DNA of 64,000 nt, from assembly GCA_026770705.1 (NCBI GenBank), contig JANJGN010000036.1, forward strand, positions 3,658,001 to 3,722,000, given 5' to 3'. The notes beneath the pieces are model-generated. The model saw only the letters and a program-made list of their open reading frames with translations. It made no database searches and was not told the DNA's origin. Position numbers and translations under genes: made by a program. This document shows, piece after piece, positions 6,048-64,000 of the stretch. Within the stretch, counting starts at the first letter, position 1. Every line of letters starts with the position of its first letter. Origin of the DNA: Isurus oxyrinchus (lineage: Eukaryota).

Positions 6048-6702
6048 CTGTCCTAAGCATCTCAAATTTAACTCAAATTTTCCAAGCTAAAAAATCCTCC
6101 ATGCCTCTCTATTGCCTCCACATCCACATCAAATAAAATTTAATAACCTTCCTTTGCTCTCTTAAGAAATATTGGCAACTGAAAAACAAGCCCTTACCTA
6201 ACATCTTATTCAATATTTAGAACAACAATGTATTTGCCTTTAATGCCAACATCACCTTAGCCTCTCATTATTAATGCATGCATCGAGCTCCTTTGTATTT
6301 CATCTCTAAACTCCCACAGGCAATCTGTCTTTACTAACTTTCCCCAGTTTAATTACCCATGGACAGACAGACACACACACAAACACACACCTACACACAT
6401 CTTTCTTCACTGAATACCACCATCTCCCCAAATATATAAAAGCAACATTCATGTTCATTTCACGTACAAAACCCCACTCATTCACCTTGTTCCCCGACCC
6501 CTTGGTACGTACACATCAACAGCTTTCTGAGGGAGAGAGATCCAGATTTCCACTCCACATTCCACAGCACCTCTTGCTCCAAAACAAGTGATACTCATGT
6601 GACAACTCTGACATGTAGGTTTAAAGTTGGACATAAACCAGAAGGGGCTTTGTAAAAACGAAATGGAACAATCACATGTTTCATGAATCATTGCCCGTGT
6701 CT
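6043..6702 (+). repeat. 660-bp local duplication, copy B
   Basis: Matches 1127-1786. Confidence 0.95.
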
Positions 6703-32227: not shown

Positions 32228-32556
32228 TCAGAGTGAGCAATCGCTGAAGCTGATGGTGTTGAGAAGGGGTGAGTTCAGGGAGCCGTGGCTGACACTGCAG
32301 GAATATCTGGAGCCCTTCTTCCAGTCAGTGGCTGGGACTCTCAGGTAACTGCTCAGGCTGTAGGTTTGATCGCTGTCTGGGGACACGACGCTTGTCCTCA
32401 CTCCGCTGTCTGTCTCTTTGCCATCCACACTCCAGAGGACCCGCACGAAACCCGGCTTAAAGCCACTCACCAGGCAGGACAGAGTGGCCGAGCCCGAGTC
32501 TATCTCTTTCGAGGAAGGGGGGAGAAGAAGGACGGATGGCCTTCGATCCTCAGTAC
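32228..32556 (-). CDS. IGLC: Ig light chain constant (C) exon, cartilaginous-fish type I / NS5 / sigma-cart-like
   Basis: Acceptor ctctctcacacacacag|GT (phase 1). (S)TEDRRPSVLLLPPSSKEIDSGSATLSCLVSGFKPGFVRVLWSVDG...TYSLSSYLRVPATDWKKGSRYSCSVSHGSLNSPLLNTISFSDCSL*: C1-set Cys/Trp/YxCxVxH and a near-terminal Cys for H-L linkage. Closely resembles my recollection of horn shark type I CL. Confidence 0.97.
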
Positions 32557-33230
32557 CTGTGTGTGTGAGAGAGTACAGAAAATATATTAATATAAAGAAC
32601 ACTGACCTGTGCGTTTGTGAGAGAGAGAGGGGAGAATGCCCCTTAACGTATAGAAAACGCTGACGTGTGTCTGAGAAAGAGAGGGAAAAATCTATACTAT
32701 ATAGGAGGGTTCGACCTGTCTGTGTCTTTGAAAGAAAATTCATTCACATAACATTCGTATCTATGTGTGCATATGTGAGTGTGTGAGAGAGAGAAATAAA
32801 TAAATCATTAATATATAGAACACTCTGACCTGTGTTTATGTGTGTGCGTGAGAGAGAGAGGGGGACGGAGAGGGGAGAATGTGAGAGAAAGAGAAAGAAA
32901 GAGAGAAAGAGAAAGTTCTATAATATGTAGAACACTGAACAGTACGTACGTGAGAGAGGAAAAGAAAATGCATTCATATATAGANNNNNNNNNNNNNNNN
33001 NNNNNNNNNNNNNNNNNNNNNNNNNNNNNNNNNNNNNNNNNNNNNNNNNNNNNNNNNNNNNNNNNNNNNNNNNNNNNNNNNNNNNNNNNNNNNNNNNNNN
33101 NNNNNNNNNNNNNNNNNNNNNNNNNNNNNNNNNNNNNNNNNNNNNNNNNNNTTCATTAATATAAAGCAAACTCTGACCTGTGCGTGTGTGTGAGAAAAAA
33201 TCTCATTAATACATAGATCTCGCTGATCTG
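32557..33230. repeat. ~50-55-bp degenerate minisatellite in the J-C intron (contains the N gap)
   Basis: gacctgtg..gtgagagag motif recurs at ~32555, 32605, 32662, 32714, 32827, 32937 and 33175. Confidence 0.7.
32985..33151. other. Assembly gap (167 N)
   Basis: Run of N. Confidence 1.
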
Positions 33231-33875
33231 AAATCGGACTGGACGTCAAAAGTCAATCACGAATCATTTTAACTTTAACTTAAATTATTGATTAATTCAC
33301 GTGATCCAACAACTTTTTATATCCATAATTCCCTGTCCAATCTTAAAATCCCTTTGCTGACATTGTAACAGTGACTAGGTGAAAAATAGTTCGTTGCTTA
33401 TTAATCTTTTGGGCGCCTTGGGGGGCGTTGGAGGCTCTGGAAGAAACTCAAAGAATCAGAGGCTGACCCCTCAAAATAAGAGGTCATGCGGCTCCTCACG
33501 CCTCTGCTAGTTCTTGTAAGAGCTTTCCAAGTAATCCCACTCATCGCCTCTGCTTGCAAAGCCCTGCAAATTTTCCCTTTCAAGTATTTATCGACTTCCA
33601 CTTTTGAAAGTATCTATAGAATTTACATCCACCTGCCTTTCTAGCAGCCTGTTCTTTCATAATTTAATTTATAATTTGACCCTGATTCTCTGTTTCGTTA
33701 TATTCTCCCGGTGCAGTTCAATTCCAAGTCTGATTCAGTTAACAATTCTGGATATAAATTGATCAGATCCAAAATTCATGAAATGGGGATTTGACATCCG
33801 CTGGAGAATGATGTCGCCTCTAAATTACTAATAATTGAAACAATATGAGTTTGAGAGTGAGGGGGAATCACTTAC

Positions 33876-33912
33876 TCCGAACATTCAAGGTGGTCCCACC
33901 TCCGAAGATCCA
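33876..33912 (-). CDS. IGLJ: Ig light chain J segment
   Basis: TGG ATC TTC GGA GGT GGG ACC ACC TTG AAT GTT CGG A|GTAAGT = WIFGGGTTLNVR; FGxG motif; phase-1 donor compatible with the C exon. Confidence 0.96.
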
Positions 33913-33951
33913 CACAGAACGGCGGTGCAATCGGACGGGTCACCTAAAACT
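33913..33951 (+). promoter_or_regulatory. J recombination signal sequence, 23-bp spacer (non-consensus)
   Basis: Heptamer CACAGAA 33913-33919 abutting J, spacer 33920-33942, nonamer CCTAAAACT 33943-33951. Confidence 0.85.
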
Positions 33952-34270
33952 CAGGCTGCGGGGAAAAGTACAGGATGAAATATTAATAACCTCTCTTTTA
34001 TCACATTCCATGTCACATTCTGCCTTTCACATGGTCTAGAACACAGAGAACAAGAGAGATATTTCAAAAATAGCGTGAAACCCCGATAATATTCATCGTT
34101 ACTGACCAGGGTAATATTGAGAACCGCTATTGAGAAAATGCAAATTAACCCTTGAAATCACAGTTAAATTTCTCAAGAACTTACACAAGGAACACTTTGG
34201 AAGTTAATGACATATTCTCGGCCAGGAACACTGCAGCTGCTGTTGTAATTCTGAGCGGTTTTCTACATAC

Positions 34271-34298
34271 AGTTTTTGTATGGCTCTGTCTCACTGTG
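34271..34298 (-). promoter_or_regulatory. V recombination signal sequence, 12-bp spacer
   Basis: CACAGTG-agacagagccat-ACAAAAACT directly after the V coding end. Confidence 0.97.
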
Positions 34299-34624
34299 CA
34301 AGCCTGCTGAGCTATCCCAGACCGAACAGTAATAGACGGCGGAGTCACCGGACTCCAGGCTTCCAATGGTCAGAATGAAATTGTTCCTGGAGGTGTCTCT
34401 CGAAGGTTGGAAACGGTCGGTGAAGCCGGTGCCTCGAGAGACGCTGCCATCTTTGCTGTGCTTTAGCACCCAGACGGGAGCTTCACCGGGTCGCTGCCGG
34501 TACCAGCGCACATTGTAGCTGCCCACATTCCCGTTCTGCATCCCGCACTGTAATCGGGCGGTCTGACCAGCGAAGACTGGGTCGGAAATTGGGGACTGAT
34601 TGAGGACGGGAACCGCCAGGACAC
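34299..34624 (-). CDS. IGLV: Ig light chain V exon (L-part 2 + V), type I / sigma-cart-like, unrearranged
   Basis: Acceptor tttttaattgaag|GT. GVLAVPVLNQSPISDPVFAGQTARLQC...WYRQRPGEAPVWVL...DRFQPSRDTSRNNFILTIGSLESGDSAVYYCSVWDSSAGL; canonical Cys/Trp/YYC, long CDR2, no stops. Confidence 0.97.
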
Positions 34625-34771
34625 CTTCAATTAAAAAGAGACAAAAGAAAACATTCAATAACCTGAAGCAAATCTGTCGTTAATACATCAATAAACATGG
34701 GTCTTAAACCGGAAAGTTCTCGGTGTTTAACGGATTCGCTGTAATCAAAACCCGCTCCTCCAATATCTGAC

Positions 34772-34820
34772 CTGTTAGATGGAGCATCAGAGCCCACAAG
34801 AGATGCAGCACTGGAGCCAT
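34772..34820 (-). CDS. Ig light chain leader exon
   Basis: ATG at 34820, MAPVLHLLWALMLHLT+G, donor CAG|GTCAGA; 147-bp phase-1 intron to the V exon. Confidence 0.92.
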
Positions 34821-62080: not shown

Positions 62081-63250
62081 ACAACATGCATATACACACA
62101 GATACACTCTCACTTATGTACAAACAAGGGCAACAAGGCACACACATGAACACGGACATATACAGAGATATAACTGCATACTCAAATCTTGTATAACACT
62201 GCAAAATGTGGCTTCCTCTAACAAACAGAACCGGGAGGGATAACACTCTAGATCAGTGTCTGTTGAAGGAATTACTCCCTGACACTTACTTGACCGTTCT
62301 ATTATTAGATGTCAATGCGGTTTCCAATTAGAACGATAATGGGGACCGGATGCAAATAAAGGTGATGATTACAGAATAATGTCCTCTGTTAACGGGGAGA
62401 CATATCCCTTGCAATCTGGAGCTAAATGCAGAGAAAAGAGTCGAACAAGCATTGCTGGTTATAAATCTAAGAATGAGAGATAATTTCAATGAATCATATA
62501 AGATTCTGAGGGAACTTTGATAGGGTAGATGTTGAGAGACTGTTTGCCCTTGTGGTGAATCTGGAACTAGTGTCTACAGCTTCAGAAAGAGCGTTTTCTC
62601 AATTCCGACTGAGATGAGATGTTTCTCCTCTCAGACTGATTTTTGAATTGTCCTGCCCAGGGAGCAGTTGAAGCTGGGTCAGTGAACCAACTGAAATCTG
62701 AGTCAGACAGGGTTTTCATTGACAAGGTCGTCCTGAAATAAGAATTCGTGACTCGACAAACCTGGCGCCCGGCATCAAGTCAATGTGGGTAAATGGCTTG
62801 ATTTCTGGGTTAAAGCGACACTGGGAATCGGATCCCTTCCTCCACCCGCACCACCACCCACCCCGCCGCCCCCCAATCCCCCCCACCCCCACCGCTCCCC
62901 ACCCCCATCCGAGCGCCGGAAATGATAAATCGACGAGCGTTGTGCAAATTCGTCGCTTAATTTTGGACTCCAAACCCCGCCTCCCACACATGTTAAAATG
63001 CGAATTGTGACCTATTGCTGTTTGCAGGCAGGACCTGTGTGTGGGAGCTGAGCGACTAAAGAGGAAGCTCAGAGTCACCGTTTACCTCCTGCTGCATTTT
63101 CCATCCGCCTGTGTTTAAAAGGCAGCGCCTAATTTCCGCGGCTCCGCATTTCACTATTTCACCCGGTTCCCCGTCTGGATTGAGGTTCCCGACCCCCCAG
63201 AGGAATAAGGGACGAACTCACAACTTCAGCCACAGCCTCGGCCGCCGACA

Positions 63251-63293
63251 ATGAGCGTCATTACTCTCTGCGCCCTGCTTCACCTCTTCCCAG
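63251..63293 (+). CDS. Signal-peptide (leader) exon of an IgSF V-domain gene
   Basis: acaATG...MSVITLCALLHLFP+G|GTTAGA; phase 1; hydrophobic; CpG-rich surroundings; TTTAAAA ~135 bp upstream. Confidence 0.75.
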
Positions 63294-63529
63294 GTTAGAT
63301 TTCCTTACTCCTGATGCGCGAAGGTACCCCACCGGAAGCTCACTGAGGAATGTCAGGAGGGCGAGGAGGCGACGCCGCCGTTTCCTGGAATATTCCTCCT
63401 CTGCCGAGGGACTGAATGGTCTAAAGTTCAGAAGTCTAGATAAACCGAGATGTCTCACATCTCAAGGCTGCAACTGTGAAGAGGACAGGACAGCCCTGAC
63501 TGCGCCCCGGACCGAGACTTATCCCTTCA

Positions 63530-63660
63530 CCCAACAGACTGTCTGATTATTACCACGGCGCTATTTTTGGGATCTTGCTGTGCACTAACTGTTCGCCGCA
63601 TTTCCGAGAATGCAAGAGTGACCGCCCTTGAAAAAGTAATTCATGTGAAGCGCCTTTATC
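63530..63660 (+). mobile_element. Deu-domain-type SINE 3' fragment in the leader intron
   Basis: gggatcttgctgtgcac...gtgacc.cccttgaaaaagtaattcat.tgaagcgc; reverse-complement match to the ~3200-3350 element. Confidence 0.55.
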
Positions 63661-63918
63661 TCCTTCCTATACCTTTCTTTTTCTCTCTCTCTCTTTCTCT
63701 CTTTCTTTCTTTGTTTCTTTGTTCCTTCCTCTCTTTCCAGGTCTGATCTCAAATTTAACCCTCAGCGCTTTATCCCGCCTACAGGTCAGGAACTGGCGAT
63801 CCTTCCTGACAGAATGTCCCTGTCACCAGGTGACAGGCGGAATGTCTCTTTGGTATAAAACAGGTTTTATGTTTCCCTGACATAACAGGATGTCTTGTGC
63901 TGTGTTCTGTCCCCTCAG

Positions 63919-64000
63919 TGACCGTCTCTCAGGCCGCGTTCCCGCAATCTCCGGCCGCTCAGACCGTCTCGGTGGGCAGTAGCTTCAAGGTGCATTGCCA
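63919..64000 (+). CDS. Start of an Ig V-type domain exon (runs off the window)
   Basis: Acceptor tgttctgtcccctcag|TG, phase 1, in frame with the leader: VTVSQAAFPQSPAAQTVSVGSSFKVHC; Q-S-P...G-x-S-x4-C is the A/A'/B-strand V-set pattern. Confidence 0.78.

Follow-up and report, generated by a model that had tools for sequence, protein, structure and literature searches.

A non-rearranging VJ-C1 receptor gene linked to light chain loci in Isurus oxyrinchus, a candidate activating member of a paired receptor family

The receptor gene and its surroundings

The window analysed here is a stretch of 64,000 nucleotides from Isurus oxyrinchus (contig JANJGN010000036.1, referred to as C36, positions 3658001-3722000, in a genome of 4.98 Gb). 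It holds a rearranging immunoglobulin light chain (IgL) minicluster on the minus strand and, at its right edge, the start of a receptor gene on the plus strand. Receptor exons are also given in the numbering of locus L004, where the L004 position plus 62000 equals the window numbering, continued past the window end.

32231..34820, minus strand: rearranging IgL minicluster (leader at 34820; V to ~34300, with a 12-spacer RSS; J at ~33910; C at 32231-32554)
63251..63293, plus strand: leader exon (ATG at 63251, phase-1 donor; an RNA-type contig covers L004 1225-1290 and joins the V exon)
63294..63918, plus strand: leader intron of 625 bp (GT..AG, phase 1; skipped in an RNA-type contig)
63919..64000, plus strand: in-window part of the joined VJ exon, the first 82 bp of 339 bp (whole exon L004:1919-2257)
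L004:2732-3034 = 64732-65034, plus strand: C1 exon, beyond the window end
L004:4896-5009 = 66896-67009, plus strand: transmembrane (TM) exon, beyond the window end
L004:5146-5204 = 67146-67204, plus strand: first tail exon, beyond the window end
L004:6280-6324 = 68280-68324, plus strand: last coding exon, beyond the window end; the tail Tyr of the family is Asp here

The window-edge gene is an intact, non-rearranging VJ-C1-TM-tail chain with a TCR-chain-like layout, fixed in the genome. Its six exons (leader, VJ, C1, TM, and two tail exons) form an intact frame of 903 bp encoding 300 residues, and AG/GT borders occur at all five introns. Joining 63251-63293 to 63919 gives the product expected in the original prediction, a signal peptide followed by a V-set N-terminus with the first Cys, across a leader intron of exactly the length it gave. 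Past the window edge, the elements anticipated for such a gene are all present: the VJ exon contains both Cys, the Trp, a D-S-G-x-Y-Y-C motif, an 11-residue loop, and an FGxG J motif ahead of a donor at 64257, and one C1, one TM, and two tail exons follow. With V and J in one exon and C1, TM, and tail exons behind it, the proposal of a non-rearranging VJ-C1-type IgSF receptor holds, whereas its competitor, an unrecognised rearranging V, is refuted by the absence of an RSS after the V. A loose RSS scan, which recovered the RSSs of IgL and TCR V segments, found no RSS-like site at the V end; its two weak RSS-like matches are intronic (one after VJ, one after C1). Identity with a rearranging Ig or TCR V is rejected, as both an RSS and a separate J are absent.

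In Pfam, the receptor scores 56 bits for V-set and 23.4 bits for C1-set, the latter a narrow pass of the cut-off of 21. The C1 domain has extra Cys residues, namely a family-wide C-x-C at the second canonical Cys and a Cys where Trp stands in most relatives, and an added disulfide is possible. In the TM exon, a membrane-proximal Cys is followed six residues on by an Arg, and a second Arg lies at the inner edge. The last exon is placed at L004 6280 because RNA-type contigs begin at this acceptor; an alternative last exon at 6309 is rejected. A third option raised for the gene, a SIRP-like receptor, is a poor match, as the gene encodes a single C1 domain and a tail with one tyrosine site. The SIRP ectodomain is V-C1-C1, and SIRP is set apart by this description, so identity with it is rejected; NKp30 is a lone VJ domain.

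The receptor gene and the window IgL are divergent, as described originally, since the IgL start codon lies on the minus strand at 34820, 28,431 bp from the receptor ATG. The lack of a proximal octamer is equally confirmed: no exact octamer occurs within 400 bp upstream of the receptor ATG, where one-mismatch octamers are found at 62942 and 62998, and the nearest exact one lies at 62350. The window IgL, whose isotype we take to be sigma-cart/sigma-2, has an exact octamer ~130 bp upstream of its ATG.

Transcript evidence

Splicing of the subfamily can be followed in same-species runs, the RNA nature of which is a guess and the contigs of which have a depth below 6. In one of four runs (X11), a contig with a depth of 4.93 skips exactly 625 bases, bounded by GT..AG, between 63293 and 63919. 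The leader-V junction proposed from the genomic letters is thus seen as an exact skip; the contig carries five letters unlike the window copy and therefore belongs to a sibling copy or allele, not provably to the window copy. Cover of this subfamily contig puts the transcript start at or before ~63225. In run X8, contig 17 spans the VJ-C1 junction, and both X8 and X11 have contigs that begin at the acceptor of the last exon (two of four runs, depth 3-5).

The contigs hold 21 variant letters, all unlike the window copy by construction; sibling copies match between 0 and 13 of them, and some are matched by no assembled copy. As the letters match siblings or no assembled copy, the subfamily appears to be spliced as modelled, and expression of the window copy is not thereby shown. 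A search for runs containing the stretch named no RNA run, and the unique exons are without cover in X9, X6, X10, and X12; neither blank is given weight as evidence. Low cover without a listed difference is also observed in X11 in the bins of the TM and first tail exons; it would fit an activating-type transcript and was left uncounted.

The receptor cluster on C36

In a V-exon search in which the best 150 of 908 candidates were scored, at least 76 A-type V matches were obtained (E <=3.2e-8), and those listed are all located on C36 between 0.59 and 4.07 Mb. They split into A1, with 13 close copies (91-100%) including the window gene, and A2, with at least 63 more distant ones. A second chain type, B, has a degenerate J and at least 82 matches over the same span (best 150 of 630 scored; some are exon fragments). 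The cluster extends over ~3.5 Mb, contains many broken genes, and is interspersed with 14 matches to the window IgL used as query. Among the A1 copies, 10 of 13 are intact and three are broken. An IgL cluster in divergent orientation lies 18-37 kb upstream of each of the ten intact copies but of none of the three broken ones.

The head-to-head arrangement of A2 and B genes was counted for 48 of the 63 A2 matches (43 plus-strand, 5 minus-strand). A B gene lies head-to-head within 6 kb of 23 of the 43 plus-strand A2 genes, against a random mean of 4.6 and a maximum of 13 in 2000 draws, and of two of the five minus-strand ones; within the same distance of the 13 A1 copies, none is found.

The linkage to IgL also exists in a ray, since in a stingray gene model (P0021) the receptor is fused to a light chain falling into one group with the window IgL. 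PSMB4 is located on C36 at 10.4 Mb. Human PSMB4 is located at 1q21, a region proposed as having moved from the MHC. Of 33 MHC class I matches, 31 are on C21 and none is on C36, and the TCR-alpha/delta-type V segments with 23-spacer RSS that were examined are on C26 and small contigs. With class I and TCR V segments on other contigs, the cluster apparently lies outside the MHC and the IgH/TCR complex, as these are presented in the accessible part of PMC12227049.

Near-identical blocks recur on C36 at ~1.7-3.8 Mb with spacings of ~0.74 and 0.93 Mb; in the 10 kb surrounding the gene, their identity is 98.6-99.7%. These blocks are either real segmental duplicates or assembly duplicates. One A1 copy, possibly an assembly duplicate, is 99.7% identical to the window copy across 9.8 kb. 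The linkage between receptor and IgL may reflect nothing other than shared segmental duplication. Three IgL-like matches (C36:1674605, 2261599, and 3184287; L105, L106) have ~70% identity to the window IgL and constitute a second subgroup. On another contig, a V exon is joined to a J motif (L099, C13:58617111-58617431, minus strand); it presumably resembles a germline-joined lambda-type light chain.

Relatives and known receptor systems

Among named proteins, one from the basking shark is nearest to the V exon, with 92% identity. Profile and follow-up searches yielded relatives in bichir, sturgeon, lungfish, coelacanth, caecilian, newt, frog, turtles, alligators, lizards, and birds, the database names of which are automatic ('immunoglobulin-like' or 'uncharacterized'). 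In a tree of 41 rows, a single branch sets off each of three groups, shark A (100/97), bony-vertebrate A (96/94), and B (97/89); the two A groups unite at 93/81, and all are separated from five Ig rows (96/93). The tree is unrooted and was built without TCR, SIRP, and NKp30 rows; newt P0167, skate P0192, turtle B-type P0170, IgNAR P0084, and the joined light chain of C13 were left out of it. Within PDB, the V exon matches IgL and TCR-alpha V domains best; the profile search of PDB was dominated by multi-domain antibodies and uninformative on the nearest kin.

Layout and spread make it fairly probable that the family is PRARP/VJC1. Fu et al. 2019 reportedly described the PRARP pair, with a VJ exon, C1, TM, an ITIM/ITSM-like tail, and two dimerising chain types, and the same layout is reported for VJC1 (Ohta et al. 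2019). The shark family shares the single-exon VJ without RSS, one C1, TM, a tail tyrosine motif, and two chain types, as well as a spread across bony fishes, amphibians, turtles, crocodilians, lizards, and birds. The tail motif is a property of the family (39 of 41 relatives), whereas the window copy has Asp instead. Differences concern the size of the shark cluster (~150 V matches versus a pair), the activating-type forms in both chains, and the interleaved IgL.

Location is a further difference: PRARP is called a VJ gene 'in the MHC' in the available text of PMC10751288, whereas the shark cluster is on C36, where class I is absent. The available text of PMC11599192 lists PRARP among joined-VJ genes. 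None of the 48, 87, or 19 matches is a record named PRARP or VJC1, and the bird relatives found carry neither name. The terms PRARP, VJC1, psmb4, and MHCtrans are absent from the supplement of PMC10751288, and PRARP is absent from the supplements of PMC12227049. Among the papers listed by literature searches, which exclude most subscription papers, none has a title or opening of the abstract that describes this cluster in sharks, activating forms of it, or interleaved IgL genes.

UrIg and UrIg2, as characterised in the accessible part of PMC12227049, have 3 to 11 C domains, are located in the MHC or the IgH/TCR alpha-delta complex, and show expression in liver and gill. Like the window gene, they are shark genes that do not rearrange, with a split leader and a single VJ exon followed by C1 domains; the window gene differs in its one C1, signalling-type tail, many copies, and PSMB4-bearing contig. 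Identity is rejected, as a single C1 followed by TM stands against three or more C1 in those partial descriptions. TCR and Ig light chains share the L-VJ-C1 layout, and the Cys before the TM is TCR-like, but the receptor has neither RSS nor separate J and carries its own tyrosine-motif tail. Taken together, the window gene is a real, intact gene within a probably known family.

Transmembrane arginine and tail tyrosine

The shark and ray comparison comprises 49 records, some of them isoforms, 41 of which have a TM. An inhibitory-type tail motif, x-x-Tyr-x-x-Leu, is present in 39 of these 41, and the TM of the relatives is uncharged; an Arg near the TM start occurs in one, and an Arg combined with loss of the Tyr in none. 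The inhibitory form is therefore taken to be ancestral.

Within the ten intact A1 copies, six (the window's included) combine a TM Arg (CGA) with a tail Asp (GAT), and four have Gly (GGA) at the Arg site and a tail Tyr (TAT). The six Arg/Asp copies constitute one group in the intron-5 tree (support 1.0) and stem from a single event, not six; they have also newly gained the second Arg at the inner TM edge. As only 16 residues separate the two Arg, short of a full span, and the best 21-residue hydrophobic window takes in the first of them, the first Arg is likely located in the outer part of the membrane. All three broken A1 copies have acquired an Arg by a separate change (AGA) and kept the tail Tyr. 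In these copies (L021-L023; C36:1817790, 2751230, and 2550072), part of the leader/intron-1 region is inverted, and C1 has lost one base.

In the 48 A2 loci, the tail Tyr is kept in 44, and nine of these 44, several of them damaged, carry an Arg at a distance of three to seven residues past the Cys. Since Arg and Tyr coexist in these nine loci and in the broken A1 copies, TM charge alone does not predict the tail. Two more A2 loci have an Arg and a last exon that was not found, and another two combine a TM Asp with a Tyr-to-Asn change. The latter genes (L063, C36:3908223; L066, C36:3972442) encode acidic-TM chains with motif loss, which could pair with a basic partner chain.

The coupling of charge and tail recurs in the B chain. 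A TM Arg is present in three of the 21 B loci examined (L072, C36:1686275; L084, C36:3894226; L088, C36:586665), and none of the three has the tail Tyr (two have His, and in one the site was not found within 9 kb), while 17 of the 18 others keep it. A horn-shark B protein (P0103) likewise has a TM Arg and a Tyr-free tail, and because the form is common to this protein, the Arg-bearing B chain is likely an older activating lineage than that of A1.

Probable homogenisation of the 5' half

The Arg/Asp A1 copies were compared with the Gly/Tyr copies L014, L015, and L017. The two forms differ by 3-5% in intron 1 and ~4% in the VJ exon, and by 12.5% in intron 5 and 11-12% in the last exon and 3' flank. 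The contrast between intron 1 and intron 5 is significant in six of six pairs (Fisher p 1e-6 to 2e-16). Non-synonymous differences amount to ~17% in the TM exon and 2-4% in V. Because non-coding intron 1 shares the low divergence, exchange of the 5' half accounts for the pattern better than purifying selection alone. In the Gly/Tyr copy L020, homogenisation of intron 1 is absent (p 0.34 and 0.066) and only the V exon is close.

The Arg/Asp copies fall into two subgroups with an intron divergence of 5-9%, yet frames and splice sites are open in all six, and in one pair compared between the subgroups, divergence of the TM exon is 6% for non-synonymous and 20% for synonymous sites. The CDR3-like loop (L004:2200-2230) varies at 5 of 11 positions among the ten intact A1 copies, above the rest of V; its length is fixed at 11 residues in most copies.

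Proposed function and alternatives

The window copy probably acts as an adaptor-coupled activating receptor that recognises the same ligand as its inhibitory siblings and forms a paired family with them. This reading, drawn from sequence, follows the paired-receptor pattern: an Arg was gained, the Tyr was lost, and V is near-identical to that of inhibitory copies, which makes an activating role likely. The sequence features of an activating paired receptor (charged TM, absence of an ITIM, and a near-identical inhibitory sibling) are all present, and the activating copy is likely a recent derivative of the inhibitory form. According to the available text of PMC3210942, activating paired receptors lack ITIMs and bind ITAM adaptors through a charged TM residue, their activating partners have repeatedly derived from inhibitory ones, and ligand-binding exons are homogenised; the accessible part of PMC10679719 relates the LILRA arginine to FcR-gamma binding. 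LILRA/LILRB, KIR, NKG2A/C, PIR, SIRP-alpha/beta, and NKp30 thus provide likenesses, with a charged TM and no ITIM in activating forms, an ITIM in inhibitory forms, and homogenised ligand-binding exons (PMC3210942 and PMC10679719, in part). The resemblance, drawn from descriptions of these receptors, is one of working, not membership; LILRs have C2-type domains in what is available of PMC10679719.

In the proposed mechanism, the buried TM Arg would pair with an aspartate in the TM of an adaptor of the FcR-gamma or CD3-zeta type, and the ITAM of that adaptor would pass on the signal. Tyr-bearing siblings might recruit SH2 phosphatases or SAP-type adaptors, and recombination or gene conversion of the 5' half likely lets both forms keep the same ligand. 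Three TM exons of the zeta/FcR-gamma type with Asp are found in the genome. Two of equal score are located on small contigs (L113 on C1723 and L114 on C1648), and another is on C18; we take the former to be FcR-gamma-like and the latter CD3-zeta-like.

The chain is predicted to dimerise through a disulfide, and its partner may be a B-type chain from this cluster. A dimer model of zebra-shark A and B chains scored 0.70 against 0.01 for the best control (no V-C1 chain being among the controls), with V-V and C1-C1 contacts. The runs agree on at least 87% of contacts, and the partner pLDDT is at least 79. In a calibration of the tool without antibodies, 51 of 78 solved complexes reach the mark it passed, as do 2 of 108 mismatched pairs; the score may reflect mere likeness to Fab and TCR structures.

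An unlikely alternative is that the window copy is a decaying or signalling-dead duplicate, either a decoy or inert, in which the Tyr was lost by drift after segmental duplication and the Arg is incidental. The cluster is indeed rich in broken genes, an Arg was separately gained in three broken copies, and no RNA contig is assignable to the window copy. Decay is, however, difficult to reconcile with the open frames and splice sites of all six Arg/Asp copies despite their intron divergence, with the low non-synonymous relative to synonymous divergence of the TM exon in the pair of subgroups compared, and with the recurrence of Arg and Tyr loss in the B chain.

It is very unlikely that the window copy is instead a signalling-neutral partner, the B chain or a CD3-like complex doing the signalling and the Arg serving assembly as in TCR chains. 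An ancient assembly residue would be expected among relatives, nearly all of which lack the Arg (present near the TM start in one of 41), and the A1 subfamily has no adjacent B gene (0/13 within 6 kb), despite a TCR-like layout, a Cys next to the membrane on its outer side in A and B chains alike, the excess of head-to-head B genes in plus-strand A2 (23/43 within 6 kb versus a random mean of 4.6), and the passing A-B dimer model.

A germline-joined RAG product of the neighbouring IgL cluster or of a TCR gene, as known for some shark light chains, is barely credible: although divergent IgL clusters accompany all ten intact A1 copies at 18-37 kb and the split leader and J motif are canonical, identity of the receptor to the window IgL is 29% (198 columns), below the 32-36% found with its relatives from turtle, alligator, sturgeon, and lungfish, the family stands apart from the five Ig rows (96/93, in a tree without TCR rows, which bears on an Ig rather than an ancient TCR origin), the CDR3-like loop is fixed at 11 residues in most copies, and TM and Tyr-motif tail exons are absent from light chains. 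Identity as a germline-joined Ig light chain is rejected on the presence of the TM and the lack of grouping with Ig rows.

Implications for antigen-receptor evolution

The activating reading of the window copy implies that a brake was turned into an accelerator by few point changes while the ligand-binding half was kept matched, the same pattern being known from mammalian KIR, Ly49, and NKG2. The receptor is a candidate marker for shark innate lymphocytes.

Intact VJ-C1 genes are sought as relatives of the gene split by the RAG transposon, and UrIg, UrIg2, NKp30, and PRARP are named in this context in the available portions of PMC12227049 and PMC10751288. A two-domain membrane VJ-C1 family with two chain types, linked to rearranging IgL, is nearer to the TCR layout than the multi-domain UrIg. 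As to antigen-receptor origins, the IgL linkage is real and extends to a ray, and the family does not fall inside the Ig rows of the tree (TCR rows missing). The value of these points is tempered by the probable earlier naming of the family and by a linkage that may mean only shared segmental duplication.

A more far-reaching picture is unlikely: a large germline two-chain, TCR-shaped system with inhibitory and adaptor-coupled activating forms in both chains, which would be the missing shark NK/innate-lymphocyte receptor complex and a living sister of the RAG-invaded receptor, its conserved mixing with rearranging IgL clusters marking a third site, outside the MHC and the IgH/TCR complex, where antigen-receptor genes originated or settled early. 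Among the family members from other vertebrates, a caecilian protein (P0115) carries the name 'programmed cell death protein 1' and is probably a mislabelled VJ-C1 receptor.
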